A stretch of 59,301 bases of DNA, taken from positions 1-59,301 of the forward strand of contig CAYNND010000004.1 of NCBI GenBank assembly GCA_964398775.1, written 5' to 3'. Under the pieces are notes generated by a model. It was not told the DNA's origin. It ran no database searches and saw nothing but the letters and a program-made list of their open reading frames with translations. This document shows, in pieces, positions 14,685 through 54,335 of this stretch (within the stretch, counting starts at the first letter, position 1; the number at the start of each line of letters is the position of its first letter). The DNA is from an uncultured Candidatus Saccharibacteria bacterium (GTDB lineage Bacteria; Patescibacteriota; Minisyncoccia; Phycocordibacterales; UBA2100). A program made the position numbers and the translations under genes.

Positions 14685-14711
14685 ATACATGACCGTACTA
14701 CTGCGTTAATT

Positions 14712-14738: not shown

Positions 14739-14750
14739 CTTCAGCGATAG

Positions 14751-14764: not shown

Positions 14765-14836
14765 GCGAGTCTTACAGACTCAGTACCCAAGTTGGATATA
14801 ATTGTTCGCCGTGCTCCAATTCTATCTCAACACGGC

Positions 14837-14846
14837 TTCGAATCCC
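14837..14846 (-). repeat. Inverted copy of the tRNA-Ser(GCU) T-arm
   Basis: ttcgaatccc is the exact reverse complement of 14911-14920. An 8-bp hairpin (14851-14872, gcatgtgc/gcacatgc) lies between the arms. Confidence 0.7.
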
Positions 14847-14900
14847 GTACGCATGTGCACCCCGGCACATGCTCCCTTCCCGTACTCGCTTCGCTCAGTG

Positions 14901-14989
14901 CGGAGAAGGAGGGATTCGAACCCTCGAGGGACTTTTACATCCCTGCCTCTTTAGCAAAGAGGTACGTTCAACCACTCCGCCACTTCTCC
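14901..14989 (-). tRNA. tRNA-Ser (anticodon GCU), type II, no encoded CCA
   Basis: Hand-folded. Acceptor GGAGAAG/CTTCTCC, anticodon arm CCTCT-TTGCTAA-AGAGG, long variable arm, T-arm GAGGG-TTCGAAT-CCCTC, discriminator G. Confidence 0.9.
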
Positions 14990-15172: not shown

Positions 15173-16603
15173 ATGAACACAAGTGCATTGCGTGAGTTCT
15201 TGGAGATTCCGTATGACGAGCTTGAGGAGATGAACCTGACTGCGGCCTCGGATGGGCAGAAAGATACTGAGGCGCAGCTCCAGAAGAAGGCGACTGACTA
15301 CTTGAAGAAAGAAAAGCGCATCAAGGCAGTGACATTGTGTTTCTCAGATATTGAAGGCCGTCTGCACATGCTCGACTACGATAAGAAGTTCTTGCTCGAC
15401 TCAGTCGAGAACCTTACTTTTGACGGCTCGTCAATCAGAGGGTTTACACCACAGCATGAGAGTGACCTCCGTCTTGAAATCGACTGGGGGAGTATTCGGC
15501 ATCTTCCTTCAGATGTCTTCGGTCCTGGGAAAGTCATCTTCTTTGCTTCAGTCTTGAACCGTGACCGCACACCGTATCACTCTGATTTCCGAGGACGCTT
15601 GAAGGCATTCACAGCAGAGCTCAAGAAGAAGCAGGGAATTGTCGCGCACGCTGCGTCAGAAATCGAAGGATTTGTCGTCGAGGGTGAAAACGCAGAGCAG
15701 CAATTTGCGCAGAAGGGCTTCACCATGGTCTCAACTGGTGGCTACTACCACTCACTGCCGATGGACAAGCTCAGACAATTTATAGACGCCGCAGCAGAGG
15801 CGCAGCGTGCAATGGGCTTTAAGAATGAGAAGGACCATCCAGAAGTTGCGCCATCACAGTTTGAGATGAACTTCTCATACGCTGAGGTCGTGCGAGCAGC
15901 GGATAATGTGCAGCTCTACAAGCTTGTCTGCCGACAGGTCGCGCGCAGTATGGGCCTCACCGCGACATTTCTCCCGAAGCCATTTGTCGGAATCAACGGC
16001 TCGGGCATGCACACGAACTTCTCGCTCTCAAAGAATGGTAAAAACATTTTCTTTGATGCAAAGGGTGAAGAGGGGATTTCAAGTCATGCATGGGACTTTG
16101 TCTCGCGACTTTTGAATCACGCACCAGAAATCTGTCTCATATTGAACTCCTCGGTCAATGCATATCGCCGTCTCGACCCACACTATGAAGCACCAAACCA
16201 GATAAAGGTCTCAGCGGTTGACCGTGGTTCGATGATTCGTATTCCACTTGGAAACGAAAAGACTGCGCGCATTGAGCTGCGCTCAGTGGGGCCAGATGCA
16301 AACCCGTACCTCGTACTCTTCACGATGCTCAAGGTGGGGCTTGAAGGAAAGAAACTGGAGAAAGATGAAAGTAAACGCGACCGTGTGCGCTTCTTGCCGG
16401 ACAACATCAACGACGCTATCGCGCTCATGAAGCCGTCAAAATTCTTGGATGGCGCACTCGGGGAGGAAAGTAAGGAAAAGTTTATCGCCTTCAAACAAGC
16501 AGCCGCAGACCGAGCTCCAAAAGCGCTCGGTACTATCGTCAAAGAAAGTGAGGTTGTGTATCACCATGAAGTAACTAACCAATTCCTATGGAACAAGTTC
16601 TAA
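15173..16603 (+). CDS. glnA: Glutamine synthetase
   Basis: HPEVAPSQFEMNF, NGSGMHTNFSL and a C-terminal catalytic region typical of GlnA-family ligases. A/T-rich leader upstream. Confidence 0.85.
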   Translation: MNTSALREFLEIPYDELEEMNLTAASDGQKDTEAQLQKKATDYLKKEKRIKAVTLCFSDIEGRLHMLDYDKKFLLDSVENLTFDGSSIRGFTPQHESDLRLEIDWGSIRHLPSDVFGPGKVIFFASVLNRDRTPYHSDFRGRLKAFTAELKKKQGIVAHAASEIEGFVVEGENAEQQFAQKGFTMVSTGGYYHSLPMDKLRQFIDAAAEAQRAMGFKNEKDHPEVAPSQFEMNFSYAEVVRAADNVQLYKLVCRQVARSMGLTATFLPKPFVGINGSGMHTNFSLSKNGKNIFFDAKGEEGISSHAWDFVSRLLNHAPEICLILNSSVNAYRRLDPHYEAPNQIKVSAVDRGSMIRIPLGNEKTARIELRSVGPDANPYLVLFTMLKVGLEGKKLEKDESKRDRVRFLPDNINDAIALMKPSKFLDGALGEESKEKFIAFKQAAADRAPKALGTIVKESEVVYHHEVTNQFLWNKF

Positions 16604-18573: not shown

Positions 18574-18957
18574 ATGCCAGTCACCACACTTACACTCATA
18601 GCTCTTACGCCCCTTTTTCTGTTTCTTTCTTTTAAAACTATCCATACACGAACAAAAAAGAAGATAAGTCTTGGACATGGTAATGATGATGTGCTCCAGA
18701 AGATGATTCGGGCACACGCAAACTTTACTGAGTATGTACCATTTATAGTTCTACTTATCTTGGCTGCTGAATACCGACAGATGCCGCAGTTGTTCCTCGT
18801 GTTTATCGGGGTACTTCTCGTGTCTGGAAGATATATTCACGCATATCACTTTTACACACATCAAAATGGCTACACGCTGAGAGTGCTCGGGATGGTGCTT
18901 ACCTTAACAGCCTGTATTTGCGGAATGTTCGGACTGCTGACAAGTTTCTTTTACTAA
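18574..18957 (+). CDS. MAPEG-family membrane protein (YecN-like)
   Basis: 127 aa with four TM segments. GHGNDDVLQKMIRAHANFTEYVPF and LVSGRYIHAYHF resemble YecN. Confidence 0.6.
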   Translation: MPVTTLTLIALTPLFLFLSFKTIHTRTKKKISLGHGNDDVLQKMIRAHANFTEYVPFIVLLILAAEYRQMPQLFLVFIGVLLVSGRYIHAYHFYTHQNGYTLRVLGMVLTLTACICGMFGLLTSFFY

Positions 18958-19283
18958 GCTTTCTTTTTCTTTGGTTTCTTAGCAGGAAGGGAAGCGGCGA
19001 TATCTATCAGTATCTCCGCGATGCGCCCTCCATCTCTAAGCATATCTTCGGGAACGATGTAGTATGGCTTTGAGCCGGGGTATGCCTCACCTTGTTCGCA
19101 CTCATCAGCAAGTGCTGCACTTGCGGGAAGTATCTTTACAAAGAATGTATCGTCGCAGATAAGTGCTACAACTTTTCCATTGCAGTAGAGTGCATACTCA
19201 CCAAACATCGCGCGTGTGGTGAAGGTCTTCGGGTCATCGAGTTTCTGAGTTATAAACTCGATTGTCTCTTTTTGTGTAGCCAT
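18954..19283 (-). CDS. TfoX/Sxy N-terminal domain protein
   Basis: RAMFGEYALYCNGKVVALICDDTFFVK core with a Lys-rich tail. Confidence 0.6.
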   Translation of the reverse strand: MATQKETIEFITQKLDDPKTFTTRAMFGEYALYCNGKVVALICDDTFFVKILPASAALADECEQGEAYPGSKPYYIVPEDMLRDGGRIAEILIDIAASLPAKKPKKKKA

Positions 19284-19318: not shown

Positions 19319-19405
19319 GGAGGGATGGATGAGTGGTTTAAATCAACGGTTTACTAAACCGTCGCTTGGGAAACCTTGCCGCGAGTTCGAATCTCGCTCC
19401 CTCCG
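19319..19405 (+). tRNA. Type II Ser-like tRNA with anticodon ACU (unusual), no encoded CCA
   Basis: Hand-folded. Acceptor GGAGGGA/TCCCTCC, 3-bp D stem with a GG loop, anticodon arm ACGGT-TTACTAA-ACCGT, long variable arm with two U-U mismatches, T-arm GCGAG-TTCGAAT-CTCGC, discriminator G. Confidence 0.7.
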
Positions 19406-19414
19406 CAATCGCCG

Positions 19415-19440
19415 AAAAGCAGCCGAATGGGTGCTTTTCT
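19415..19440 (+). terminator. Intrinsic terminator after the tRNA
   Basis: aaaagcagcc-gaat-gggtgctttt (one mismatch) followed by tttct. Lies at the centre of the 19386-19471 palindrome. Confidence 0.65.
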
Positions 19441-19453
19441 TGCGAATTGCGTT

Positions 19454-19471
19454 GAGGGAGCGAGATTCGAA
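19454..19471 (+). repeat. Inverted copy of the tRNA T-loop/3' acceptor
   Basis: gagggagcgagattcgaa is the exact reverse complement of 19386-19403 (18 nt). Similarity continues into the trailer (cgcaatcg vs cgcaattcg). Confidence 0.9.
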
Positions 19472-19472
19472 A

Positions 19473-19513
19473 GCTTGCGCGGCTACGCGCACAGCAGTGC
19501 GTGTCGCGCAAGC
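19473..19513 (+). repeat. Long GC-rich hairpin
   Basis: gcttgcgcg(gct)acgcgcac-agca-gtgcgtgtcgcgcaagc: 17 pairs including one G-U, with a 3-nt bulge. Confidence 0.7.
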
Positions 19514-19557
19514 GTGGTCAGGCGGAGCACTGAGCGACGGCGAAGCGCGAGCGCTTG

Positions 19558-19572
19558 ACCGAATCTCGCTCC
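19558..19572 (+). repeat. Direct copy 1 of the tRNA 3' segment
   Basis: accgaatctcgctcc. Positions 19560-19573 match tRNA positions 19388-19401 exactly (14 nt). Confidence 0.85.
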
Positions 19573-19589
19573 CGGGTCTTTGTTTCTTA

Positions 19590-19604
19590 ACCGAATCTCG
19601 CTCC
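19590..19604 (+). repeat. Direct copy 2 of the tRNA 3' segment
   Basis: accgaatctcgctcc is identical to 19558-19572. 13 nt match the tRNA. Confidence 0.85.
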
Positions 19605-27161: not shown

Positions 27162-27866
27162 TCACCGCCCAGCAAAGGCAAATACATGTACTGCAGATGC
27201 ACCTGCATGCAAGAGTGACCGCTGTGCGGAGAGAAGCGTTGCTCCCGTCGTGACGACATCATCAATCAGTAAGATTCGTTTCCCAGTGATATCAGTCTCG
27301 CATACAAATGCATCAGATACATTTGAGATTCGTTCGGTACGACCGAGATTTGTTTGCGGGAGTGTATTTCGAGTACGTTTCAGGAGTGTCGGGAAGAGGA
27401 GCGCGCTTAGTGTCGGCTCTCTCTGCGCGATACGCTCGCAGGCAAAAGTGACTTGGTTAAAACCACGCTCGCGAAGTCGCTGCGCAGATAGAGGAATTGG
27501 CACGATATAGTCGATACGCTCATTCGCGCAGATATTTTGCACATGCGCTGCAAGAAGTGATGCAATACGTTCAACTGACTCAACACTCCCGTGATATTTG
27601 AGTGTATGAATGAGCGCACGAACTGACGGTTCGTTTACTGGCAGGGCATAGGTGATTGGGCTACCACCTTTGCGAACTTGCTGGATGTGTACGTATGTAG
27701 AGTCTACAGTGCGTGCAAGTTCCTCATCAGTAGTGAGTGGGGTAACAAAACGCAGTGCCTTGAACACGAGGTGCGAACAGACACGCACTCGGTGCATAAA
27801 ATACTGTATTATCACGATGCTTTTCATGATATCATAGGCATACATGGGATTGTTTGACATCATCAC
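27162..27866 (-). CDS. comFC: ComF-family phosphoribosyltransferase-like protein
   Basis: ILLIDDVVTTGATL PRPP-binding loop and ComF-like upstream region. Start uncertain: alternative Met codons at 27845, 27827 and 27797. The longest ORF overlaps divergent pilM. Confidence 0.7.
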   Translation of the reverse strand: MMMSNNPMYAYDIMKSIVIIQYFMHRVRVCSHLVFKALRFVTPLTTDEELARTVDSTYVHIQQVRKGGSPITYALPVNEPSVRALIHTLKYHGSVESVERIASLLAAHVQNICANERIDYIVPIPLSAQRLRERGFNQVTFACERIAQREPTLSALLFPTLLKRTRNTLPQTNLGRTERISNVSDAFVCETDITGKRILLIDDVVTTGATLLSAQRSLLHAGASAVHVFAFAGR

Positions 27867-29007
27867 AAAAAGCCTCGGGTCGGTACCTTCGCTCGGAGGT
27901 TCTCAAAGTGTGGTAGGTATCGACATCGGCTCATCATCTATCAAGATGGTGCAGCTGCGACGTGAACATGGGAAAGCAGTGCTTGAAACCTACGGCGCTA
28001 TTTCACTTGGTCCCTACGCAGATTTGCATGCAGGCCAAGTCGCGCGCCTCCCAGCTCAGCGTCTTGCTGATGCACTCCGTGATTTGATGCGCGAATCAAA
28101 CATCACTGCGAAGACTGCGGGTGTTGCTATACCGTTCACTTCAAGTCTCACCTCTATTATTGAGATTCCACCGATGAGTAAGGACCAGCTCCAGCGAGTC
28201 ATCCCGCTTGAAGCACGAAAATATATTCCGGTACCAATGAATGAAATTACACTTGATTGGTTTGTCATTCCGAAAGATGAATTTTCAGAGAACATGGACC
28301 CAAGCAGTGGGGAAAAGAAAAAAGATGTCATGGAAGTGCTGCTTGTTGCGATACATAACGATATCCTCAATACGTTTCAATCAGTCATGACTGATATACA
28401 GATTCAGCCGCAATTTTATGAACTGGAGGTATTTAGTGCAGCTCGTTCATCACTCGGTCACGGCGTTGCACCAGTGATGCTCGTCGATATTGGTGCATCC
28501 ACAACAAAAGTGTCTATCATTGAGCGAGGCATCGTGCGCATGTCGCATATCATAAACCAGGGTGGTCAAGAGATGACACTTTCTATTACCCGAGCCATGA
28601 ATTGGGACTTCGAAAAGGCGGAGCGAGTGAAGCGAGAACAGGGAATGCAGCTTTCAGGTGACATAGCTGGTGCACCGACTGGTCCTGGTGCATTGCCGCC
28701 TCCGTCGATTCGTACCGCATTGTTATCAACACTCGGTCGTATAATACCTGACACACATAAAGTATTATTGAACTACGGGAAGAAGTATCAGAAGAATGTA
28801 CCGCACATTATCTTTACCGGTGGTGGCGCGACTGTGAAGGAGATACTCCCGTATGCACAAGAGAGACTTGGTGCTGAAGTGTTAATCGCACATCCATTTG
28901 AAAAAGTGGAAGCGCCAGCATTTCTTATCGATGTCTTGAAAGAGGTAGGTCCTGAGTTTGCAGTGGCAGTCGGAGTTGCACTTCGACAAATCCAGAACTC
29001 AGGTTGA
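27844..29007 (+). CDS. pilM: Type IV pilus assembly protein PilM (actin-like ATPase fold)
   Basis: VVGIDIGSSSIKMVQL, VDIGASTTKVSI and IIFTGGGA motifs. Confidence 0.85.
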   Translation: MGLFDIITKSLGSVPSLGGSQSVVGIDIGSSSIKMVQLRREHGKAVLETYGAISLGPYADLHAGQVARLPAQRLADALRDLMRESNITAKTAGVAIPFTSSLTSIIEIPPMSKDQLQRVIPLEARKYIPVPMNEITLDWFVIPKDEFSENMDPSSGEKKKDVMEVLLVAIHNDILNTFQSVMTDIQIQPQFYELEVFSAARSSLGHGVAPVMLVDIGASTTKVSIIERGIVRMSHIINQGGQEMTLSITRAMNWDFEKAERVKREQGMQLSGDIAGAPTGPGALPPPSIRTALLSTLGRIIPDTHKVLLNYGKKYQKNVPHIIFTGGGATVKEILPYAQERLGAEVLIAHPFEKVEAPAFLIDVLKEVGPEFAVAVGVALRQIQNSG

Positions 29008-29020
29008 TATACGAACTTTT

Positions 29021-29839
29021 ATGGAATCACCAATCAACTCATCATTCATTCCAACGAAAATCTCACTCGGTGAGCGTCCTCGTGAAGAGTATGGCTCTGA
29101 TGCGTTTGATGTGATGGTGCTACTCGGAGTGATAGCACTTGTTGTCGCTGGTACGATGGCTGCCGGAGTCTTTCTCTACAAACAATTTCTCGCGAACGAT
29201 TTGGCGGCGAAAAAAGAACAGCTCAATAAAGCAAAAAAAGCATTTCAGCCTGACTTGGTGCGTGACCTGACTCGACTCGATGAACGCATCTCAATTGCGG
29301 AAGGAGTCTTGCAGTCTCATATTGCACCTTCAGCATTTTTTGATGTATTGAGTCAGATTACACTCAAAACGATTGAGTATAAGGGGCTCGAATACGAATT
29401 CACCGGCACTGACTCACTCCACGTCGTTATGAATGGTCGCGCTGCAAGTGTAAACGGTATTGCATATCAGGCGCGTGTCATGAGTACACATCCTGCCATT
29501 AAGAATCCAATCTTTTCAATCGGTAACATTACGAAAGATGGTGTTGAGTTTACTGTTGAGCTCGATATAAATCCTGAAGCGGTCAACTTCGCCTCACTTA
29601 TTTCAGCCGCAGCAGTAAATAACCAAGATACCGAACAAGGTTTTATTCCGAACGAAGAAGGAGCTGCGCCAGCAGATGGTGAGGAGGGGGCAATTGAGGA
29701 AGAAGCAACAGATGGCCAACCTGCTGCACAACGTGGTGTGCCACGAGGGGGGGCTGATGTAGGTACACCGACAAAGCAGCGCCCAGCATCCCAGAACAAG
29801 AAGACCGCACCTGATGAGCTATTCGGTAACTTTGAATAA
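29021..29839 (+). CDS. PilN-like bitopic pilus assembly protein with acidic low-complexity tail
   Basis: From the ATG at 29021. Single TM (VMVLLGVIALVVAGTMAAGVFLY) followed by a coiled segment. Position between pilM and pilO. Confidence 0.55.
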   Translation: MESPINSSFIPTKISLGERPREEYGSDAFDVMVLLGVIALVVAGTMAAGVFLYKQFLANDLAAKKEQLNKAKKAFQPDLVRDLTRLDERISIAEGVLQSHIAPSAFFDVLSQITLKTIEYKGLEYEFTGTDSLHVVMNGRAASVNGIAYQARVMSTHPAIKNPIFSIGNITKDGVEFTVELDINPEAVNFASLISAAAVNNQDTEQGFIPNEEGAAPADGEEGAIEEEATDGQPAAQRGVPRGGADVGTPTKQRPASQNKKTAPDELFGNFE

Positions 29840-29841
29840 TT

Positions 29842-30525
29842 ATGGCAAAACTTATACTCGCAATCATAATGTTCATCGGTGCAGGCGCGCTCATCTTTAT
29901 CTATGTGTCACCGACATATAGTGAGACTGCAAAAGTGAAGGCAGAGATTGCAACCTACCAACAAGCGCTCGAGAAGGCGACAGAGGTACAAGAATTGAAG
30001 CGCGGCCTCCTCGCTAAACTCAATGATTTCAGTGGTGCAAATGTCGAGCGTCTTGAAAAGATGCTTCCTGACCATATCGATAACATTCACCTCGTACTTG
30101 ATTTGGATGGTATGGCAACAGCCCGTGGACTCAGTTTAAGTACAGTTAATGTGCAACGCGAAGGTGGGGCAACAAAAGAAAAGAAAGACCAAGGCGTAGT
30201 GCTTGCAGGTGCCCTGCAAGAGCAAAGAAAGTACCAGTCAGTAGTGCTTGAGTTCGGAGTCGTTGCAACATATCCAGATATGCTCGCATTCATGAGAGAC
30301 ATTGAGCGCAGTTTGCGATTGGTTGACTTGGTGAAGCTCAAGATTGGAAGTGCACAAACACAACAGCAGCAGCTTGAATTTTCTCAGATTCCAGCTGAGC
30401 TTTCACGCTTCGGTGCACAGACCCGGGGACAAACAGGTACACAAGCTGGCCTGCTTCAGACAGGAAGTGGTTTTGAGCCTACATACACATTCAATGTAAA
30501 TATAAGAACGTACTGGCTCCCTTAA
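29842..30525 (+). CDS. pilO: PilO-like pilus assembly protein
   Basis: N-terminal TM, coiled coil (AEIATYQQALEKATEVQELK), then LPDHIDNIHLVLDLDGMA, typical of PilO. Confidence 0.65.
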   Translation: MAKLILAIIMFIGAGALIFIYVSPTYSETAKVKAEIATYQQALEKATEVQELKRGLLAKLNDFSGANVERLEKMLPDHIDNIHLVLDLDGMATARGLSLSTVNVQREGGATKEKKDQGVVLAGALQEQRKYQSVVLEFGVVATYPDMLAFMRDIERSLRLVDLVKLKIGSAQTQQQQLEFSQIPAELSRFGAQTRGQTGTQAGLLQTGSGFEPTYTFNVNIRTYWLP

Positions 30526-30535
30526 TCTATATTGT

Positions 30536-30943
30536 ATGGAATTACTTAAAAAAAACTTAACACTCATAGGAATCATATTCATGGTTATCTTGGGTGCAGT
30601 ATGGTACGCACTCTCAGCTGGGAGCGGCACTTCTGCAGCAGTAGAAGTAACTGAGGGTGGTGTTCTTGTTGCAACAGCGGGGGATCCAGAAGCAGAGGCA
30701 GACCCTGATGTGCTCAAGTTACTCCTCGATATGCGAGCAATTAAACTCGATGGACGTCTCTTTAAGTCACCAGCATTTCGCGCATTGCAAGACACCGGCA
30801 GACAAATCTTGAAAGAGCCACAAGGTCGTGTAAACCCATTTGCACCAGCAGGGTCTGACGCAGACGCAAGCTTTGGGGATGGAGCAGAGAATCAACAGGA
30901 TGAAGCAGGAGCATCTGGTAATATTCCTCAACTCACTGAATAA
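30536..30943 (+). CDS. Small bitopic protein of the pilus cluster
   Basis: 135 aa with one TM, in the operon between pilO and pilB. No family recognised. Confidence 0.45.
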   Translation: MELLKKNLTLIGIIFMVILGAVWYALSAGSGTSAAVEVTEGGVLVATAGDPEAEADPDVLKLLLDMRAIKLDGRLFKSPAFRALQDTGRQILKEPQGRVNPFAPAGSDADASFGDGAENQQDEAGASGNIPQLTE

Positions 30944-30945
30944 TA

Positions 30946-32772
30946 GTGAACATGGAGGATCCACTCACTATATTGATTGCACAGGGAAGCCTAACCGAAG
31001 CGCTTGCGCGGGAAATTCGTAATGAAATAGAGCGAAAAAGCATTACCGTTGAAGAGGCGCTCAAGCAGCATGGCTTCAGTGATGAGGAGATTCTTGCTGC
31101 ACAACAGGGCGGAACAATACGTGTGCCAACGAGATCTATTCGACAAGATGAAAAAGTTCCACTAGAAGTGTTGCAGTACATTCCAGAAGAATCTGCAAAG
31201 CACTACAGCGTTATTGCACTCGGACTCGAGGAGGGGATTTTGCAGGTAGGGATGATAAACCCAGATGATATTGAGGCGTTGGATGCTCTCAACTTCATTA
31301 CGCGAAAGATTGGTATTCCATACAAGATTTTCCACATCACAAAGGCTGATTTCGAGCGAGTGCTTGAAATGTATCGAGGTTTGACGGGAGATGTCGGTAC
31401 AGCACTTGACGAGCTTGCAACTGAAGTGGGTACTGACCAGGCTGATATGCAAGACGAGCTGAACAAAGTTCAGACAACTCCGAATAAACCTGATGCGACA
31501 ATCCAGGAGGATGCACCAATCATCAAGATTGTAGCGACAATACTTCGCTATGCAGTTGATGGAGGAGCATCTGATATTCATATTGAGCCTGCTGAGTCAG
31601 GGGTACGAGTGCGTTTCCGTCTCGATGGTTCACTCCATACGAGTCTCGTGTTGCCACGAAATACACATCAAGCGGTGATAGCGCGTATAAAAGTGCTCTC
31701 TGCGATGCGACTTGATGAGCGAAGAAAACCGCAAGATGGACGTTTCGGTGCTTCAATAAACAATCGCAAAATCGACTTTCGTGTTTCAACATTTCCAACA
31801 CCTGACGGAGAAAAGGTGGTGATGCGTATTCTCGATAGAAGTAAAGGGTTTGTGCCGCTCGGCGACCTCGGTCTTTCTGAAAAGAGTAAGACACTCATAA
31901 AAGCTGCGCTTGATAGGCCATATGGGCTCATACTTGTTTCTGGTCCAACTGGTTCCGGTAAATCCACAACACTCTACTCGATGCTCAATGAGCTCGATCG
32001 AGATACAGAAAACGTGATGTCACTTGAAGACCCGGTGGAATATCGTATGGAAGGAGTTAACCAGTCACAAGTACGAGCTGAGATTGGGTATAGTTTTGCA
32101 AGTGGTCTTCGCACTGCTTTGCGCCAAGACCCAGACGTGATAATGGTGGGAGAAATCCGAGATGGCGAAACTGCAAAGCTTGCGGTGCAGGCCGCACTTA
32201 CTGGTCACTTGGTGCTCTCGACAATTCACACCAACGATTCTACTGGTGTTATCCCACGTCTTATTGATATGGGTGTAGACCCATATTTGATTGCACCGAC
32301 ACTTACACTAGTTGTTGCGCAACGTCTTGTACGTAAGCTCAACCCAGGCACTGGAAAACCAATCGATGTTACCCCGAGTATGCGCGCAATGATGGAAGAG
32401 ACTATCAAGGATTTACCACCACAGTTTAGACCAACGTTTGGCAATATTGTGTACGAGCCTGAGCCAACACAAGGGTGTGCGACTGGTATGCGAGGTCGTG
32501 TTGCTGTGACAGAGATGTTTGGTATGAGTTCTGAGATTGAAAAAGCAATTCTTGCGCGAAAGGGTGATAATGAAATCTACGCACTCGCTCGCAAGCAGGG
32601 AATGCTCACCTTGCGAGAGGATGCTATACTGAAGGCGACGAGCAAGGTTATTCCATTCTCAGAAGTGGGCACGCTCGGTGGCGTACTTCTTGCCGAAGAA
32701 GTACAGCTTATACAGGATAGTGCTGATGAAGCAGAAAAGGTAGCGGCAGAACTAGCAACACACGTATCATGA
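30946..32772 (+). CDS. pilB: Type IV pilus assembly ATPase PilB/GspE family
   Basis: GSPII_E N-terminal domain, Walker A GPTGSGKST, Asp/His boxes and a tetracysteine-region equivalent. Confidence 0.9.
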   Translation: MNMEDPLTILIAQGSLTEALAREIRNEIERKSITVEEALKQHGFSDEEILAAQQGGTIRVPTRSIRQDEKVPLEVLQYIPEESAKHYSVIALGLEEGILQVGMINPDDIEALDALNFITRKIGIPYKIFHITKADFERVLEMYRGLTGDVGTALDELATEVGTDQADMQDELNKVQTTPNKPDATIQEDAPIIKIVATILRYAVDGGASDIHIEPAESGVRVRFRLDGSLHTSLVLPRNTHQAVIARIKVLSAMRLDERRKPQDGRFGASINNRKIDFRVSTFPTPDGEKVVMRILDRSKGFVPLGDLGLSEKSKTLIKAALDRPYGLILVSGPTGSGKSTTLYSMLNELDRDTENVMSLEDPVEYRMEGVNQSQVRAEIGYSFASGLRTALRQDPDVIMVGEIRDGETAKLAVQAALTGHLVLSTIHTNDSTGVIPRLIDMGVDPYLIAPTLTLVVAQRLVRKLNPGTGKPIDVTPSMRAMMEETIKDLPPQFRPTFGNIVYEPEPTQGCATGMRGRVAVTEMFGMSSEIEKAILARKGDNEIYALARKQGMLTLREDAILKATSKVIPFSEVGTLGGVLLAEEVQLIQDSADEAEKVAAELATHVS

Positions 32773-33200
32773 CAACACCTGCACAACGAACAATCCTATT
32801 TCTCGACGATGACCCGTTCATGATTGACGTGTATTCAATTAAAATACACGAACGTGGACATACTGTAATTCCTATGACAAGTGCACAAGATGCGCTCAAG
32901 AAATTACGTGAAGGCCTCAAGCCAGATGTTATAGCGTTTGATATACGCATGCCAGGGATGGACGGATTTCAATTTGTAGAAGCACTTCGAAAAGAGCACC
33001 TCGCAGATACTATCCCGCTCATCGTGCTCTCAAACCAGTCAGAACCAGAAGATTTTAAACGAATGAAAGAGTTTGGCGTCGCAGCACAATTTATAAAAGC
33101 ACATATGCTTCCTGATGAAATGGTCACTAAGTTTGAACAAGTGATTGGTACATGGATTCCTCCACAGGGCGGCGTGCAGTTTGCTCAGCCTAAGCTATAG
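32769..33200 (+). CDS. Stand-alone response-regulator receiver domain
   Basis: LFLDDDP, VIAFDIRMPGMDG, LIVLSNQ and FIKAH supply the acidic pocket, phospho-Asp, Ser/Thr and Lys positions. ATGA overlap with pilB. Confidence 0.8.
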   Translation: MTTPAQRTILFLDDDPFMIDVYSIKIHERGHTVIPMTSAQDALKKLREGLKPDVIAFDIRMPGMDGFQFVEALRKEHLADTIPLIVLSNQSEPEDFKRMKEFGVAAQFIKAHMLPDEMVTKFEQVIGTWIPPQGGVQFAQPKL

Positions 33201-33207
33201 TGGTGGT

Positions 33208-34275
33208 ATGGCGATGCAATACGATAAAGAGCTACAAAAATATCTTACGATAGTAACGCATGAAGGTGCATCCGACTTGCATCTTTCTGCTGATTCGCGC
33301 CCGACACTTCGTGTCGACGGTTCTTTGGTGCCCATGATGAACGAGCCGGTACTAAACGGTGAGGACATTATGGGTTTTGTTACCGCGCTGACCAACCCAG
33401 AACAAAAGCAGCGCTTCCTCGCGCAGCAAGAACTGGATTTCTCTTTCCAGCTTCCAGGCAGTGAGCGTTTCCGTGGTAATGCATTTTTCCAACGCAATAA
33501 TGCAGCGGTGGTGTTGCGACGTATTCCAAAAGTTATCCGTACGCTCGACGAGCTGACACTACCACCGACACTTGCAAACTTTGCTCGTAAGCGACAGGGA
33601 TTTTTCCTCGTTGTGGGGCCGGTAGGTCAGGGAAAGACTACGACGCTTGCGGCACTCATCGATCTCATCAACACAGAGCGAGCTGCGCATATTGTGACAA
33701 TCGAAGACCCAATTGAATACGTACATGACCCGAAGCAATCACTTGTTGACCAGCGTGAAGTTGGTATCGATACTCACGATTTTCCTTCCGCACTTCGTAG
33801 TGCATTCCGACAAGACATCGATGTGATGCTTGTTGGTGAAATGCGCGGTTCTGAAACGATGGGAGCAGCAGTGACTGCCGCTGAAACTGGACACTTGGTA
33901 TTTTCAACATTGCACACAAACAACGCTGCACAGACGATTGACCGTATCATCGATACGTTTCCAGCTGAACAGCAAGACCAGATTCGCTTGCAGCTTTCAG
34001 CATCGCTTGCAGGTATATTCTCGCAACGTCTCATCCCACGTGTATCAGGTGGTATGGTGCCTGCATATGAATTGCTCATCAACAACAAAGCAGTTGCAAA
34101 CCTGATTCGAGAGCGAAGAACGCATGAAATCAACACAATCATCGAAACAGGCTCAGAGGATGGAATGATTGATATGAACCGCACACTTGCTGACCTCGTC
34201 TCCCGAGGTGAAATCACTATTGAAAGTGCGTATGAGCATTCACTCAACCCGCAAATGCTTGAACGACTTCTGTAA
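33208..34275 (+). CDS. pilT: Twitching-motility/retraction ATPase PilT
   Basis: From the ATG at 33208. Has ASDLHL, Walker A GPVGQGKTT, IEDPIEY and AHLVFSTLHTN-type motifs. Confidence 0.9.
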   Translation: MAMQYDKELQKYLTIVTHEGASDLHLSADSRPTLRVDGSLVPMMNEPVLNGEDIMGFVTALTNPEQKQRFLAQQELDFSFQLPGSERFRGNAFFQRNNAAVVLRRIPKVIRTLDELTLPPTLANFARKRQGFFLVVGPVGQGKTTTLAALIDLINTERAAHIVTIEDPIEYVHDPKQSLVDQREVGIDTHDFPSALRSAFRQDIDVMLVGEMRGSETMGAAVTAAETGHLVFSTLHTNNAAQTIDRIIDTFPAEQQDQIRLQLSASLAGIFSQRLIPRVSGGMVPAYELLINNKAVANLIRERRTHEINTIIETGSEDGMIDMNRTLADLVSRGEITIESAYEHSLNPQMLERLL

Positions 34276-34284
34276 TCGAATACT

Positions 34285-35493
34285 ATGGCACTTTTTGGAT
34301 ATAAAGCAGTAGATAAAGAAGGACGAGCAGCCGACGGTACAATCGACGCTGTTTCAGTAGATGTCGCGGTCGCGAGCTTGCAGCGACGAGGCTTGATTGT
34401 GCAGTCAATCGACCCCGTAAAATCAGGAGGGAAACTCTCGATGAACCTCAGCTTCTTTGAACGCATCAAGACCAAGGATGTTGTGATGCTCTCCCGACAA
34501 ATCGCAACTCTGTTTGAAGCGCAAGTCTCCGCTCTGCGTGCGTTTCGTTTGCTTGCAACTGAGACCACAAACCCTGCACTTCAAGATCGACTAACACAAA
34601 TCGCAAACGATATCCAAGCAGGTGCACCGATGTCACGCGCACTCGCAAAGCACCCAACCGTTTTCGATAACTTCTATGTTCAGATGGTGCGCACAGGTGA
34701 GGAAACAGGAAAGCTTGATGACGTGTTCAACTTCCTTGCTGACTATCTTGATCGAAACTATGAAATAAGTTCAAAAGCAAAAAACGCACTCATCTATCCT
34801 GCGTTCGTGATTGTTGTCTTCTTCACTGTGATGATTTTGATGATGACAATGGTCATTCCAAAGATGACTGGTATCCTCGTGGAGACTGGGCAGACGCTCC
34901 CGATCTACACACGCATCATCATGGCGATGAGTAATTTCTTGGTGCACTACTTCTATCTGTTTATCGCTGGAATTGTACTCACCGTTGTCATGGTAAGTCG
35001 TGTGCTCAGTAGTGAGTCAGGTAAAGAGGCATTCTCAAAACTAAAACTGACCGTTCCGTATGTTGGTTCACTCTACCAAAAACTATTCCTCTCACGAATC
35101 TCAGACAACTTAAGTACAATGCTTACTTCAGGAATCCAGATGGTTCGAGCACTTGAAATGTCAGGGCAGGTAGTAGGAGACCCCTCATATGAGCGTGCGC
35201 TTATGACTATAACAAAAGATGTGCAGACAGGTATACATACGTCAGATGCGATGGCGAAACACAAAGAGTTCCCGAGCATCATGGTTGCGATGGTTCGTGT
35301 CGGAGAAGAGACTGGTGATATGGGTAAGATACTTGCTACGATGGCAAAGTTTTATCGACGAGAAGTGGGCACTGCGGTGGATACTCTGGTCTCGATGATT
35401 GAGCCGCTCATGATTGTGATGCTCGCACTTGGTGTCGGTATTTTGTTGACGTCAGTGTTGGTCCCTATCTACAACATCTCTTCTGGAATCTAA
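34285..35493 (+). CDS. pilC: Pilus platform protein PilC/GspF family
   Basis: 402 aa with two T2SSF repeats and three TM segments. Confidence 0.9.
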   Translation: MALFGYKAVDKEGRAADGTIDAVSVDVAVASLQRRGLIVQSIDPVKSGGKLSMNLSFFERIKTKDVVMLSRQIATLFEAQVSALRAFRLLATETTNPALQDRLTQIANDIQAGAPMSRALAKHPTVFDNFYVQMVRTGEETGKLDDVFNFLADYLDRNYEISSKAKNALIYPAFVIVVFFTVMILMMTMVIPKMTGILVETGQTLPIYTRIIMAMSNFLVHYFYLFIAGIVLTVVMVSRVLSSESGKEAFSKLKLTVPYVGSLYQKLFLSRISDNLSTMLTSGIQMVRALEMSGQVVGDPSYERALMTITKDVQTGIHTSDAMAKHKEFPSIMVAMVRVGEETGDMGKILATMAKFYRREVGTAVDTLVSMIEPLMIVMLALGVGILLTSVLVPIYNISSGI

Positions 35494-51342: not shown

Positions 51343-52398
51343 ATGGAGCCCACCTCAAGTGATAACTTGCTGCCAATTCAAGCGGTTGACCGCCTCATTG
51401 GTTCGTACGCGGGTGGGATGAATACAGAAAACTACTACTACGCAGAATATGTCGGGGAACAACCTAAGCAGACTCCGGCAAATTATATTGAAGTAAACGA
51501 AGATGGGATTCCGATTGTGTATATAAATGGCACGAGTATTCCAGCAACAGCGAGTGTCCAAAAGCCGGGACTGACACCACAAGAGGGGGTTGTACAACAG
51601 GGCGCAACAAAGACTGAAACAAGTGCTGGCTCGGGCACAACTGAGCTGCAAATTATGAGTCCTTCAGGTCTCGCCACAACAGTCATCAATGCTGTTTTTT
51701 CAATCGCTGTCACGATAGCGATTATCATGGGTATTGTTGTTACTTACCTTATTATCCGTACTAGACAATTGCACCACCATGAAGAACATGTGCGGGCAGC
51801 TGCTCCTGGGGGTCATGGTGATACCCATGGACATGACACACATGCTCATGATTCACATGGAAGTACTCCTGTCGATACTCATACTCACGATACTCATGCG
51901 GAGACAGTCGAACCACATGCTCCATTTGAGCACCCTGCACCTTCCGTAAGTGAATCGTTTTATACAGGTGCGGCGCATCCTGATGCTCCTGCAGAATATC
52001 CAGGTGTGACACTACTTGAAGAAGGCGATATTGCTCAGGATGTGCAGGTTACTGAGTCTGCTACTCATGGAGACACCTCACTTTCTGATGTGCACAATCG
52101 ATTTTCTGCAATTCGAACGTATGTCGCAGGTGATGACCCCGTTACTTGGAGACATGCACTCATGGATATTGATTTGGTGCTCGAAGATATGCTTGCGCGA
52201 AAAGGTCTTGAAGGGAATAGTACGGCAGAGCGACTCGCGCATGCTGACGCACGTCATCTCACTATGCTCAACGAAGCACTCACTGCACGCGCGTATTATG
52301 AAGAGTTGGTTTCTGGCGTAGAACCGATTACTCATGAATCAATGCAACGCTTGCTTGCGCTCTACACGCCAGTACTCGCTGAGCTTGGTCTCAAATAA
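51343..52398 (+). CDS. Hypothetical bitopic protein with His-rich tract
   Basis: 351 aa with a central TM (VINAVFSIAVTIAIIMGIVVTYLII), then HHHEEHVRAAAPGGHGDTHGHDTHAHDSHGSTPVDTHTHDTHAE. Occupies the position where gatB often sits. Confidence 0.5.
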   Translation: MEPTSSDNLLPIQAVDRLIGSYAGGMNTENYYYAEYVGEQPKQTPANYIEVNEDGIPIVYINGTSIPATASVQKPGLTPQEGVVQQGATKTETSAGSGTTELQIMSPSGLATTVINAVFSIAVTIAIIMGIVVTYLIIRTRQLHHHEEHVRAAAPGGHGDTHGHDTHAHDSHGSTPVDTHTHDTHAETVEPHAPFEHPAPSVSESFYTGAAHPDAPAEYPGVTLLEEGDIAQDVQVTESATHGDTSLSDVHNRFSAIRTYVAGDDPVTWRHALMDIDLVLEDMLARKGLEGNSTAERLAHADARHLTMLNEALTARAYYEELVSGVEPITHESMQRLLALYTPVLAELGLK

Positions 52399-52452
52399 CA
52401 TCAGTGCAGAAGACTATTGCCCTTCATGGGCTGATGGAGTAGTATGCACCGC

Positions 52453-52523
52453 AGCGGGATGGAGGAGTAGTACCTCATCAGGCTCATAACCTGAAGGCGT
52501 TCGTGCAATTCGAACTCCCGCTA
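52453..52523 (+). tRNA. tRNA with CAU anticodon and non-canonical D/T loops (possible initiator or degenerate)
   Basis: Hand-folded, 71 nt. Acceptor AGCGGGA/TCCCGCT (A1-U72), D arm GAGG-AGTAGTA-CCTC (no GG), anticodon arm TCAGG-CTCATAA-CCTGA, T arm GTTCG-TGCAATT-CGAAC (G at position 55). Confidence 0.6.
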
Positions 52524-52526
52524 CAT

Positions 52527-52563
52527 GTTAGAAAAATATGCCGCCCTGCGGCTATTTTTCGTT
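52527..52563 (+). repeat. 37-nt repeat copy 1, containing an intrinsic terminator
   Basis: gttagaaaaatatgccgccctgcggctatttttcgtt, with hairpin gccgc-cct-gcggc plus a T-run. Identical copy at 52721-52757. Confidence 0.9.
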
Positions 52564-52602
52564 ACGTGTAGCAAGGAGAGCACATGACGGGGTAATGCGC
52601 GT

Positions 52603-52614
52603 TTCGAATTGCAC
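52603..52614 (+). repeat. Inverted copy of the 52453-52523 tRNA T-arm
   Basis: ttcgaattgcac is the exact reverse complement of 52503-52514. Confidence 0.7.
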
Positions 52615-52720
52615 ACCGCAGCGAGACCCATGTACTCATGGGTGCGAGGTCGGGGAGGAAGCACTTAGTATTTTTATGTATTCATGAAAACACTTAGTGA
52701 CTTGACCCCAATTCGCGCTC

Positions 52721-52757
52721 GTTAGAAAAATATGCCGCCCTGCGGCTATTTTTCGTT
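52721..52757 (+). repeat. 37-nt repeat copy 2 (terminator)
   Basis: Perfect copy of 52527-52563, 194 nt downstream. Preceded by ccaattcgcgctc, a decayed version of gcaattcgaactcccgctacat. Confidence 0.9.
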
Positions 52758-52809
52758 TTCGGTAAAAGAGTCTTTGAAAATGGTAAAAATAATGATAGTC
52801 TGTCGGCAC

Positions 52810-52883
52810 GTCGGGATAGCTCAGAAGGTTAGAGCGAGGGACTCATAAGCCCTAGGTCGTGAGTTCGATTCTCACTCCCGACA
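52810..52883 (+). tRNA. tRNA with CAU anticodon (elongator Met or Ile2), no encoded CCA
   Basis: Hand-folded, 74 nt. Acceptor GTCGGGA/TCCCGAC, D arm GCTC-AGAAGGTTA-GAGC, anticodon loop CTCATAA (A31-G39 mismatch), T arm GTGAG-TTCGATT-CTCAC. Confidence 0.85.
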
Positions 52884-52926
52884 CACGATAGTGTGGTGGG
52901 AAGTACTGTGCCTGCGCACAGTGCGG

Positions 52927-52938
52927 GTGAGAATCGAA
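52927..52938 (+). repeat. Inverted copy of the 52810-52883 tRNA T-arm
   Basis: gtgagaatcgaa is the exact reverse complement of 52864-52875. A 7-bp hairpin (52905-52922) lies between the arms. Confidence 0.75.
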
Positions 52939-53013
52939 AGCAGCTTGCGTTATGAGCAAAAATATTTTGCATGCCCTTTATCATAAGCACGTACTGGTCT
53001 GTAAGCCAGATGT

Positions 53014-53026
53014 TCACTCCTGACAC
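53014..53026 (+). repeat. Direct partial copy of the tRNA 3' end
   Basis: tcactcctgacac matches tcactcccgacac at 52872-52884 at 12 of 13 positions. Confidence 0.75.
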
Positions 53027-53052
53027 TGTGCACGTCATGATATGCTTCATCC

Positions 53053-53298
53053 ATGGATAGTAATCTTATAATTGGTTGCTTTGGAGCAGCAATTATTCTC
53101 ATAGCATTTATTGCGCTCCAGCTTCACTACATCACAGATGAAGATATTCGGTACGATACTGCAAATGTTGCCGGTTCAGTATTTCTTGTCTGGTATGCTT
53201 ATACAGGAGGAAGCTGGCCGTTTTTTATTCTCAATACAGTCTGGGGTCTTGTATCGCTGCGAGATGTCATTACATACTACACGCGGAGACAGGGTTGA
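53053..53298 (+). CDS. Small three-TM membrane protein
   Basis: 81 aa, hydrophobic. Resembles short CBU_0592-like/PQ-loop-like membrane proteins, but I cannot assign it firmly. Confidence 0.45.
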   Translation: MDSNLIIGCFGAAIILIAFIALQLHYITDEDIRYDTANVAGSVFLVWYAYTGGSWPFFILNTVWGLVSLRDVITYYTRRQG

Positions 53299-53333
53299 AT
53301 CTTTCCTTAATATCTAGTATTGTACCCAGCACT

Positions 53334-53407
53334 GCGGGCGTAGCTCAGCTGGTTAGAGCGTCTCCCTGTCACGGAGAAGGCCGTGGGTTCAAATCCCATC
53401 GCTCGCG
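53334..53407 (+). tRNA. tRNA-Asp (anticodon GUC), no encoded CCA
   Basis: Hand-folded. Acceptor GCGGGCG/CGCTCGC (one G-U), D arm GCTC-AGCTGGTTA-GAGC, anticodon arm TCTCC-CTGTCAC-GGAGA, T arm GTGGG-TTCAAAT-CCCAT. Confidence 0.95.
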
Positions 53408-53415
53408 CAAATAGT

Positions 53416-53442
53416 CAAAACCGAGGCAATGCCTCGGTTTTG
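53416..53442 (+). terminator. Strong intrinsic terminator after tRNA-Asp
   Basis: caaaaccgaggc-aat-gcctcggttttg (12-bp stem) followed by ctttattt. Confidence 0.85.
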
Positions 53443-53453
53443 CTTTATTTGGA

Positions 53454-53473
53454 GCGAGCGATGGGATTTGAAC
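53454..53473 (+). repeat. Inverted copy of the tRNA-Asp T-loop/3' acceptor
   Basis: gcgagcgatgggatttgaac is the exact reverse complement of 53387-53406 (20 nt). With the terminator it forms an ~87-nt near-palindrome. Confidence 0.95.
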
Positions 53474-53645
53474 GGCGCAAGCCTGCGAAGCCGGTTGTAA
53501 TCAACCGTAGGCGCGCCGCGGCCAGCAGCACTTATGTGTACCCACATTAGTGACTGCGGGACAAATCCCAAAGCCTTGAAACTAGTTTTCGTTTCGAGCC
53601 TTTTTCATTTTTTGAAAGAGCATGATAGTGTGATTTATAAGTAAT

Positions 53646-54335
53646 ATGATTGATCAGATTTATTCACACCACGAAATGTGTTCCAACGAAGGAGGTTTTA
53701 TGCTTCAGAAAGGAATGAATTTTAAAGTAAATGGTAAATACTCAATCATTTTGATGTCTCAGAGAGTCAATGCACCTTATCAGGATAAAATTTTGGAGGA
53801 TGGGGTATCAATCGAATACGAGGGGCATGATTGTTCTCGACGGTACTGTTCTGAACCAAAAAATACCAGTCAACCTGAATATACCCCAACAGGCTCACTA
53901 ACTGAGAATGGTAAATTTAAAAAAGCAGTCGATGACTATAAAAATGGATTGACTGAAGTGTCAGTAGTTAAGGTGTACGAAAAATTGCAACCAGGTATTT
54001 GGTCTCTAAAAGGCTACTTTGATTTGTTAGACTATAAGATTGTTATGAGTGGTATGCGCAGTGTGTTTCGCTTTACTTTAAAACTCTCTGAAAGCATGCC
54101 TGAAAATTTTGAGTCAAATAGTCATGATATCGAGCATACTCGACTGATACCATCAAATGTTAAAAGAATCGTGTATAAAAGAGATAGAGGTGTTTGCGTA
54201 ATATGTGGCAGTGCAAAGAATCTGCACTACGATCACGATCTTCCATATTCAAAAGGTGGAGAGAGTACTGACGAAAGAAACATCAGATTGTTATGCGCTA
54301 AACATAATCTAAGTAAATCTGGGAAAATCGAATAA
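53646..54335 (+). CDS. HNH endonuclease with N-terminal SRA/PUA-like domain (candidate modification-dependent restriction enzyme)
   Basis: C-terminal CVICGSAKNLHYDHDLPYSKGG...NIRLLCAKHNLSKS is an HNH motif. The N-terminal QKGMNF...SIILMSQRVNAPYQD...GVSIEYEGHD resembles YDG/SRA-type modules (weaker call). The gene is markedly A/T-rich. Confidence 0.65.
   Translation: MIDQIYSHHEMCSNEGGFMLQKGMNFKVNGKYSIILMSQRVNAPYQDKILEDGVSIEYEGHDCSRRYCSEPKNTSQPEYTPTGSLTENGKFKKAVDDYKNGLTEVSVVKVYEKLQPGIWSLKGYFDLLDYKIVMSGMRSVFRFTLKLSESMPENFESNSHDIEHTRLIPSNVKRIVYKRDRGVCVICGSAKNLHYDHDLPYSKGGESTDERNIRLLCAKHNLSKSGKIE

Follow-up and report, generated by a model that had tools for sequence, protein, structure and literature searches.

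Why should a tRNA gene be followed by copies, first inverted and then direct, of its own 3′ end? The question is raised by contig CAYNND010000004.1 (assembly GCA_964398775.1) of an uncultured Candidatus Saccharibacteria bacterium, whose 59,301 nucleotides are called the window here and in which a first-pass annotation, made from the letters alone, had noted such trailers behind all five tRNA genes that it could fold. We describe these trailers as members of a family of structured modules of ~130–230 nt, inserted behind tRNA genes and polymorphic between close relatives, and weigh what kind of element or RNA they may be.

Copies of the tRNA 3′ end in the window

ARAGORN and Rfam (release 15), run over the whole window, call the same five tRNA genes as the first-pass annotation: tRNA-Asp(GUC) at 53334–53408, two tRNA-Met(CAU) genes at 52453–52524 (Met1, initiator-like) and 52810–52884 (Met2), and a tRNA-Ser with anticodon ACU at 19319–19406, all on the plus strand, and tRNA-Ser(GCU) at 14900–14989 on the minus strand. 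A repeat search recovered every inverted copy that had been listed: for Asp 53387–53411 against 53449–53473 (25 nt at 92%, 20 exact), for Ser-ACU 19386–19403 against 19454–19471 (18 exact), for Met1 52503–52514 against 52603–52614 and for Met2 52864–52875 against 52927–52938 (12 exact each), and for Ser-GCU 14911–14923 against 14834–14846 (13 nt at 92%, 10 exact). When 300-nt flanks were compared with 500 dinucleotide shuffles each, downstream inverted matches were significant at all five tRNAs (p = 0.014, 0, 0.002, 0 and 0), and the upstream flanks held no significant inverted copy (p 0.12–0.99). That each copy matches its own tRNA is borne out by the tRNA-by-flank matrix, with 10–20 nt on the diagonal and 6–9 nt off it.

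Direct copies are less uniform than had been claimed. They are clear at Ser-ACU (14 nt at 19560–19573 and 13 nt at 19592–19604), Ser-GCU (TCCCTCCTTTTCCGC, 15 nt at 93% identity to the tRNA end, 14750–14764) and Met2 (TCACTCCTGACAC, 53014–53026, 12 of 13 nt matching the tRNA 3′ end), but degenerate at Met1 (CCCCAATTCGCGCTC, 52706–52720) and at Asp (GGGACAAATCCCA, 53558–53570, T-arm-like). Likewise, the hairpin or terminator said to come first is terminator-like at Asp, Ser-ACU and Met1, but only a short hairpin at Met2 and absent at Ser-GCU. Three short strings reported as shared across loci are exact, and correspond to conserved core motifs of the module family. Each tRNA with its trailer is predicted to fold far more stably than shuffled controls (z −4.2 to −12.6), with the tRNA 3′ third paired with the trailer in the predicted minimum-energy fold of all five.

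A module family behind tRNA genes of Paceibacteria

The window was compared with 80 related loci anchored on GatA, 1.2 Mb of sequence. On the tRNA strand, a module comprises in order the tRNA end that is copied (A1), an optional terminator (T1), an antisense arm (A′acc), a hairpin (hp1), a second antisense arm (A′T), a multi-helix core, a direct repeat (A2) and often a second terminator (T2). A′acc is antisense to the acceptor 3′ strand, the discriminator and the genomic spacer, and extends into the complement of spacer and T1, not of CCA; A′T is, in nearly all copies, the exact reverse complement of tRNA nt 54–65 (T-loop plus T-stem 3′ strand); A2 repeats the final 13–20 nt of the tRNA. T1 is the module's own or a duplicated terminator, and T2 a displaced or duplicated one. 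Type I cores run aGGCCGgAGCGAUG, a hairpin hp2, GCGAGGCGGGGUCGCG and a long hairpin with loop GAGCGACGGCGAG, and end in GUGACC, forming a three-way junction with GCGAGGCGGGGUCGCG and a near-invariant G·U pair; type III cores, at Met2 and Ser-GCU in the window, have GUACUG and a hairpin with a CUGUAAG loop.

Judged from these loci, the modules are widespread yet patchy in Paceibacteria (Patescibacteria, or candidate phyla radiation, CPR), and the family is kept across orders of that group. An inverted copy of at least 12 nt of a tRNA's own 3′ end lies downstream of 20 of 177 tRNAs and upstream of a single one, and the common layout was seen at 37/185 tRNAs, with occupancy by lineage ranging from 5/5 in the window, 4/4 in L008 and 3/3 in L041 to between 0/5 and 0/7 at many loci. 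Sixteen-nucleotide copies of tRNA ends, one mismatch allowed, were seen downstream of tRNAs only.

A covariance model (R1), built from the RNAalifold structure of 16 aligned cores, gave 32 matches at E < 0.01 in the 1.2 Mb, each on the strand of the tRNA. Twenty-five lie 33–84 nt past a tRNA; three lie 224–252 nt downstream, namely two second tandem units and the module of L069; one follows an intron-containing tRNA missed by ARAGORN (L009), two follow cargo (L014, L041) and one is at a contig end (L022), and the match in L028 is an orphan core. With speed filters off, R1 finds exactly three matches in the window, those of Met1 (52603–52724, 56.8 bits), Ser-ACU (19461–19575, 45.9 bits) and Asp (53462–53577), all behind tRNAs. 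For type III, a MAFFT/RNAalifold model aligned poorly, recovering the CUGUAAG hairpin only, and a motif enrichment test was used instead: of 36 occurrences, 10 lie no more than 250 nt downstream of a tRNA, where 0.7 would be expected (p = 1e-9).

Turnover among close relatives

Syntenic contigs were found through the open reading frame (ORF) adjoining Met1, whose homologues are 70–81% identical. All of these relatives share tRNA Met1 and tRNA Asp with the window at 100% identity, yet their trailers differ. Met1 of L089 is followed by a terminator and the next promoter only, an empty site, and Met2 of L091 is likewise empty; modules are present in the window, L081, L093 and L094. In the window and L093, the Met1 module stands behind the same terminator as in L089, and in the window this 37-nt terminator is repeated exactly past A2. 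Met1 of L081 and L094 has a module with a different T1, the original terminator of L094 lying past A2, and in L091 a remnant is left of T1, A′acc, hp1 and one arm. At Asp, L093 bears a 180-nt type I module between perfect 19-nt repeats (AAATCCCATCGCTCGCGCA), its original terminator displaced; L089 retains an internally deleted remnant of the L093-type module; L097 has a ~60-nt repeat, terminator included; and in the window, L081 and L091 the original terminator is followed by a module unlike that of L093. The hp2 hairpin (ACCCATGTACTCATGGGT) of Met1 in the window is found again at Asp in L093, placing one core subtype at two tRNAs, and module distribution is not congruent with relatedness. The modules are insertions, polymorphic between close relatives, and since relatives gain, lose and swap them, they have the look of an undescribed tRNA-specific insertion element.

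At Met1 of the window the two terminator blocks (T1, 52527–52563; T2, 52721–52757) are 100% identical and enclose a module with a decayed A2; the same block being the sole trailer in L089, a recent duplication or gene conversion of units of A plus terminator is implied. For the two tRNA-Ser loci orthologues were sought through GlnA neighbours; because synteny is not conserved, the comparison extends to one homologous module, that of Ser-GCU in L096.

Modules can also be arrayed or separated from their tRNA. L082 has an array of at least three units. In L014 two ORFs lie between the T1 of a tRNA-Met and A′ (an inositol monophosphatase-family gene and a 2H phosphoesterase of the 2′-5′ RNA ligase superfamily) and are followed by two module units, and L041 has one ORF between units; the third of these cargo ORFs has no Pfam match. 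A second 2H phosphoesterase lies just past the L014 array on the other strand (cargo and this gene together, 13349–14882 and 15418–15891), which may be coincidence or a link to RNA-end chemistry. In L069 a minus-strand tRNA-Thr (12243–12318) sits between the T1 of a tRNA-Met and the hp1/A′T of its module, indicating that a module tolerates, or attracts, further insertions. L081 holds a composite of two types at 8125–8357, where the 3′ half of a type I core (GTGCGAGGCAGGGCAGTGACC...GAGTCACGCC) comes after a window-type Asp module.

Fold, constraint and pairing partner of the module

In the 16-core alignment, 15 of 18 predicted pairs show compensatory changes. When aligned with the model, 92% of cells pair, against 63% in column shuffles and 30–46% with slid partners, and the covariation score is 0.71 against ~0.09, figures that lean towards structure as the alignment was fitted to the covariance model. 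The tRNA-sense strand is the more stable in 16 of 17 complete modules (by a mean of 7 kcal/mol, p = 0.0005) and has 69 G·U pairs against 31 on the opposite strand; one pair of the P3 helix is G·U in 20 of the 31 aligned sequences with letters at both positions. Because both fold stability and G·U pairs are biased to the tRNA-sense strand, it is one specific strand that folds.

Orthologous copies are well preserved. Compared with their L081 counterparts, the window's Asp and Met2 modules are 89.5% and 79% identical, compensatory stem changes included (GGTT/AACC to CTTT/AAAG in the GUAAUCA hairpin of the Asp core), against 36% and 50% at four-fold degenerate sites, which are near saturation; the Met1 module, at 53%, has been replaced. 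These comparisons indicate that intact modules are under constraint and evolve far more slowly than synonymous sites, and that they are not decaying scars.

The partner of A′T was examined in 28 modules picked via the core, independently of any tRNA match. A′T forms on average 11.4 contiguous Watson–Crick pairs with the tRNA and 6.9 with A2, and the tRNA is the better partner in 27 of 28 modules (p = 5e-6). As A′T covers the tRNA from nt 54 on and A2 only from nt 56 or 57, A′ matches host sequence outside the duplicated segment. A helix between A′T and A2 is also longer within elements than between them (7.0 vs 5.2 bp, p = 3e-7). That A′ tracks the tRNA and not A2, together with the sequence-conserved core, favours recognition of the target or of its transcript by base pairing.

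Interpretation

We give about an even chance to the reading that these are non-autonomous insertion modules specific for tRNA 3′ ends, which contain a structured single-strand domain and encode no recombinase in cis. The module would be moved by enzymes encoded elsewhere, and a single-stranded form, either RNA or one DNA strand, would use base pairing of A′ to recognise the tRNA gene or transcript, with the core as a protein-binding or catalytic scaffold. A2 would be the junction repeat left by insertion, and the tRNA would stay intact because the module duplicates or supplies its 3′ end and a terminator. The order after integration, A1-T1-(cargo)-A′-core-A2-T2, is what a folded-strand attachment site would be expected to leave.

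Several points weigh against such insertion modules. Neither in nor beside any module did Pfam scans of the 45 window ORFs and the cargo ORFs find a recombinase, transposase or reverse transcriptase. Searches turned up no free or excised copies: in IMG/VR, three core patterns gave one integrated array only. Two insertion topologies occur, T1 being unlike T2 in some copies and identical to it in others, and we could find no single mechanism that would yield both. L046 (12785–12930) has a minimal tRNA-Thr unit without an antisense arm, made up of the tRNA, a small hairpin, GGUGUAUUG, a UGUAA hairpin and, 49 nt downstream, a perfect 17-nt repeat of the tRNA end, so that a direct repeat can exist without A′. 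The high conservation of orthologous copies could fit a host function equally well, the pairing figures are coloured by the model to which the cores were aligned, and the folding strand may be RNA or single-stranded DNA, between which sequence cannot separate.

The main rival, serious though in our judgement less likely, and not mutually exclusive with an insertion module, is a host-functional trailer RNA, in which the module is a structured 3′ external transcribed spacer (ETS) of the tRNA, co-transcribed by read-through. Its A′ would pair with the tRNA 3′ third, or with A2 as a tRNA-like minihelix, and the module would then govern either the 3′ maturation of pre-tRNAs that lack CCA or their quality control. 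Another possibility is release of the module as a small RNA linked to the tRNA, like 3′ETS-leuZ of E. coli or plant tRNA-snoRNA (small nucleolar RNA) dicistrons. The strand-specific covarying fold, with its conserved internal-loop nucleotides and near-invariant G·U pair, and the invariable location on the tRNA strand agree with a trailer RNA, as do the exactness of A′T to tRNA nt 54–65 in nearly all copies and the preservation of orthologous copies far beyond synonymous sites; moreover, Met2-type modules have no terminator between tRNA and A′, and a terminator often lies 3′ of A2. On the other hand, good intrinsic terminators usually stand between tRNA and A′, and coding cargo or a minus-strand tRNA may separate the two. 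Core types differ at one tRNA among relatives while one type serves different tRNAs, and the tRNA would have to unfold to form the predicted minimum-energy pairing. Empty sites or decayed remnants in close relatives with 100% identical tRNAs mean, in addition, that the module is dispensable. The earlier proposal of a functional RNA pairing with the tRNA 3′ half is partly supported, by the strand-specific fold and the tracking of the tRNA by A′T, but terminators, cargo genes and empty sites speak against an obligatory co-transcribed trailer.

It is unlikely, though worth setting apart, that the module is a self-contained insertion or processing device guided by base pairing, with A′ as a programmable guide to the stretch from T-loop to tRNA 3′ end, the three-way-junction core as scaffold or ribozyme for a trans-encoded enzyme and A2 as junction repeat or spare 3′ end. 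Such a device could be an RNA- or single-stranded DNA-guided site-specific mobile element of a new type, or a guide-core-3′ exon cassette that either cleaves at the tRNA 3′ end or replaces it. The idea draws on one core subtype occurring at different tRNAs with re-matched arms, on A′T matching nt 54–56 outside the repeat and on the lack of a recombinase in cis.

Less probable still are ordinary attachment (att) scars, that is, internally deleted integrase islands or prophages in which T1 would represent the P′ arm and A′-core the P arm, close to the earlier suggestion of relics of tRNA-targeting integrative elements. What stands of that suggestion is the polymorphic insertions flanked by tRNA-3′-end repeats. 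These repeats begin in the T-loop, a known sublocation class among tRNA integration sites; the cargo genes of L014 lie between T1 and A′, and tandem units resemble successive integrations, as in tycheposons. However, no integrase was found, either by tblastn with XerD, which had no match in the 1.3 Mb of 99 loci, or by Pfam among the 45 window ORFs and the cargo ORFs. Double-stranded protein-binding arms would show neither compensatory stem changes nor a strand bias of G·U pairs, and scars should decay neutrally, yet modules are 79–90% conserved where four-fold sites are saturated and the family is kept across Paceibacteria orders.

Very improbable, and largely refuted by a comparison with 12 protein-gene terminators of the window and by the conserved core, is the fold-back duplication at terminators that had also been proposed, a mutational by-product of template switching or fold-back synthesis that extends quasi-palindromes with neither function nor element: A1, spacer, T1, spacer complement and A′ do form one continuous long palindrome at Asp, Ser-ACU and L041 Met, but those 12 terminators lack an extended palindrome (flank matches of 4–9 nt vs 20 nt at tRNA-Asp), hp1 and the sequence-conserved core are common to different tRNAs and genomes, A′T always ends precisely at tRNA nt 54, and Met2-type modules offer no terminator for a fold-back.

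Searches for known classes

The modules themselves contain no ORF, and blastn of the module against the annotated plasmids and phages of PLSDB and INPHARED gave no match. At gathering score, Rfam reports only tRNAs and true group I introns in the window and element-rich loci; in E-value mode it gives nothing relevant, and no match to hepatitis delta virus (HDV)-like ribozymes or group I introns, in window 52300–53800 and L008 13500–17500. As no description of such modules was found in the literature either, the remark that they are not a described element class held up.

Candidates considered for the modules were rejected. Group I introns (RF00028) split tRNA-Met genes in L009 (3957–4167) and L028 (12129–12349), both missed by ARAGORN, and the intron-split tRNA of L009 keeps a type I module downstream; RF00028 detects these introns but not the modules in the same loci, and the T-loop:A′T pairs are all Watson–Crick, against the U·G expected at a 5′ splice site. 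A primer-binding site of retroelement or retroviral type does not fit because A′acc goes on to complement spacer and T1 where a TGG would be required; at Asp there is a TGG (53450–53452), followed by a mismatch at the discriminator. ARAGORN finds no minus-strand pseudo-tRNA or transfer-messenger RNA, and the minus-strand T-stem is broken. TIGR-Tas arrays produce 36-nt RNAs and are unrelated.

Comparison with known systems

Tycheposons of Prochlorococcus resemble the modules in inserting at the 3′ end of tRNA genes with partial tRNA repeats and an intact tRNA (bioRxiv 10.1101/2020.12.28.424599), and with other tRNA-targeting elements they share arrays by successive insertion, remnants, presence or absence in relatives and occasional cargo. 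Unlike tRNA-targeting integrative elements, the modules measure 130–230 nt only, have no integrase that we could find, and combine an antisense copy of the target, a covarying folded core and conservation beyond the neutral rate. Integron attC cassettes (PMC5027507, PMC4792948) are likewise non-autonomous arrayed units, and their recombinase acts in trans, as would that of the modules. Each cassette ends in an imperfect palindrome with complementary arms, of which one strand folds; in the modules, the strand bias and the longer A′T:A2 helix within elements point to such a palindrome, and the better pairing of A′T with the tRNA points away from it. In contrast to cassettes, modules are anchored on tRNAs and not on attI/intI, lack the GTTRRRY/RYYYAAC boxes (their arms being tRNA-specific) and have no integrase nearby; compared with attC, their core is sequence-conserved and A′ matches the target better than its partner arm. 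CTXφ integrates through a folded single-stranded attP, a mimic of dif on which XerCD acts (PMC3442271). The modules similarly have two inverted target-like copies ~90–100 nt apart that are hairpin-capable, with no element-encoded recombinase, and a CTXφ-like event would leave the order A1-(cargo)-A′-loop-A2. They differ in that the target is a tRNA 3′ end and not dif, no Xer homologue was found in the loci, there is no phage genome and the A′:A2 duplex averages 7 bp.

In R2 retrotransposons a 5′ ribozyme base-pairs with the 28S rRNA upstream of it; trans-splicing group I ribozymes have been engineered on a guide-core-3′ exon design. The modules resemble both in lying in or beside a host RNA gene, with a 5′ antisense arm, a structured core and the host 3′ copy last, but have no reverse transcriptase, no HDV-like or group I match and no signs of cleavage or splicing. 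Miniature inverted-repeat transposable elements (MITEs) and repetitive extragenic palindromic (REP) sequences are small, non-coding, hairpin-rich, multi-copy and non-autonomous, as the modules are. Modules, however, lie strictly behind tRNAs, their 'terminal inverted repeats' are copies of the target and their junction repeat is 13–19 nt, or ~60 nt with the terminator; a MITE was also rejected on the covariance-model matches, which always share the strand of the tRNA and nearly always follow one, and on the target-derived arms. The 3′ETS-leuZ sponge of E. coli is a tRNA-linked co-transcribed RNA, structured and directly 3′ of its tRNA on the same strand. In plant tRNA-snoRNA dicistrons, as they are cited in a passage of PMC12045711, a structured RNA lies directly 3′ of the tRNA on the same strand. 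Unlike either of these, the modules are antisense to their own tRNA, have a repeat of the tRNA end and show insertion polymorphism.

The family thus appears undescribed, with kin among tRNA-site insertion elements or structured repeats, and a new mechanism is a real possibility. If mobile, the module would be a very small site-specific element that spares its target gene and carries an antisense image of it; its design would hint at base-pairing-guided insertion in CPR, where mobile-element biology is almost unknown, and would explain how gene islets build up behind tRNA genes in reduced genomes. If a host RNA, it would be a new and widespread class of structured RNA tied to the maturation of CCA-less tRNAs, in organisms whose RNA-processing machinery is minimal. 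In either case the family is defined by a covariance model with strong covariation and can be searched for in metagenomes.

Modules of the window and their surroundings

In the Asp module, which lacks hp1, A1 is the last 22 nt of the tRNA (53387–53408), and T1 (53416–53442) is an intrinsic-terminator hairpin at the tip of a ~43-nt quasi-palindrome of A1, spacer and T1 with A′. Its A′ (53449–53473) is contiguous antisense to the T-loop, T-stem 3′ strand and acceptor 3′ strand; the core (53474–53557) has a hairpin with a GUAAUCA loop and then one ending in UUAGUGAC, and a second terminator-like hairpin (T2, 53575–53598) lies 3′ of the module. Related cores have a second conserved hairpin with the loop GUAAUCA.

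The Met2 module has A′acc at 52891–52901 (GTGTGGTGGGA, imperfectly antisense to the acceptor 3′ strand), hp1 at 52903–52924 with loop CCUGC(G), kept in L081, L093, L041 and L008, A′T at 52927–52938 and a type III core at 52939–53013, in which a long hairpin is followed by GUACUG and the small CUGUAAG-loop hairpin. At Met1, A′acc (GTGTAGCAAGGAG, imperfect) and a degenerate hp1 occupy 52566–52602, followed by A′T (52603–52614) and a type I core (52615–52705) with hp2 at 52626–52643, GCGAGGUCGGGG and a P3 helix ending in UUAGUGAC; like that of Met2, this A′T is an exact reverse complement of T-loop and T-stem 3′ strand.

The Ser-ACU module has a terminator-like T1 (19414–19439), A′ (19454–19471, antisense to the tRNA 3′ end) and a type I core (19472–19559) with hp2 and a P3 helix with loop GAGCGACGGCGA; its two direct copies, A2 and A3 (19560–19604), are followed by a T tract. 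On the minus strand, the Ser-GCU module has A′acc (GGGAAGGGA), hp1 (14851–14872) and A′T (GGGATTCGAAGCC, 14834–14846) within 14834–14881, a type III core at 14765–14833 with GUACUG and the CUGUAAG hairpin, A2, and a terminator T2 at 14717–14739, 3′ of the module. The CUGUAAG loop (52995–53010 and 14771–14786 in the window; also L065, L068, L071, L024, L040, L046, L096 and L097) fits the anticodon-loop pattern Y-U-NNN-R-N with GUA as the 'anticodon'.

Pfam scans of 45 ORFs identified LigA, GatCA, GlnA, Amt, purine-synthesis enzymes, type IV pilus/competence proteins and Nramp in the window, and the closest relatives of its GatA are from Paceibacteria/Kaiserbacteria metagenome-assembled genomes (at most 64% identity); on this gene content and these relatives, the window is assigned to a CPR bacterium and not to a phage. 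Between the Asp module and Nramp lies an HNH endonuclease ORF (53646–54335, 229 aa) of a very large family that is ~60% identical across CPR and archaea, with a homologue in L101 in a neighbourhood of cyclic-oligonucleotide-based anti-phage signalling (CBASS) and abortive infection (Abi) genes. It was rejected as a mobility enzyme, being missing in the syntenic relatives L089, L091 and L093 and having homologues that lie away from tRNAs, in unrelated surroundings that are often of defence type. A metallo-beta-lactamase-fold protein (Lactamase_B_2, 349 aa; 11978–13027, minus strand), 1.9 kb from tRNA-Ser(GCU), might be an RNase Z/RNase J-type enzyme for 3′ processing of CCA-less tRNAs.

A competence-type gene set at 27162–35493 and 18954–19283 comprises a ComFC-like phosphoribosyltransferase, PilM, PilO, PilB/PilT-type ATPases, PilC and TfoX-N; uptake of single-stranded DNA is therefore plausible in the host, a point relevant to any model with folded single-stranded DNA. 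The TfoX-N protein, within 18954–19283, neighbours tRNA-Ser(ACU). This tRNA has an A34 anticodon in a clean arm, with a 5-bp stem and the 7-nt loop UUACUAA, and lies 4.3 kb from the ordinary tRNA-Ser(GCU). In bacteria, A34 is unusual in tRNAs beyond Arg-ACG, and tRNA-Ser(ACU) may carry inosine, serve in recoding or be a paralogue in decay.

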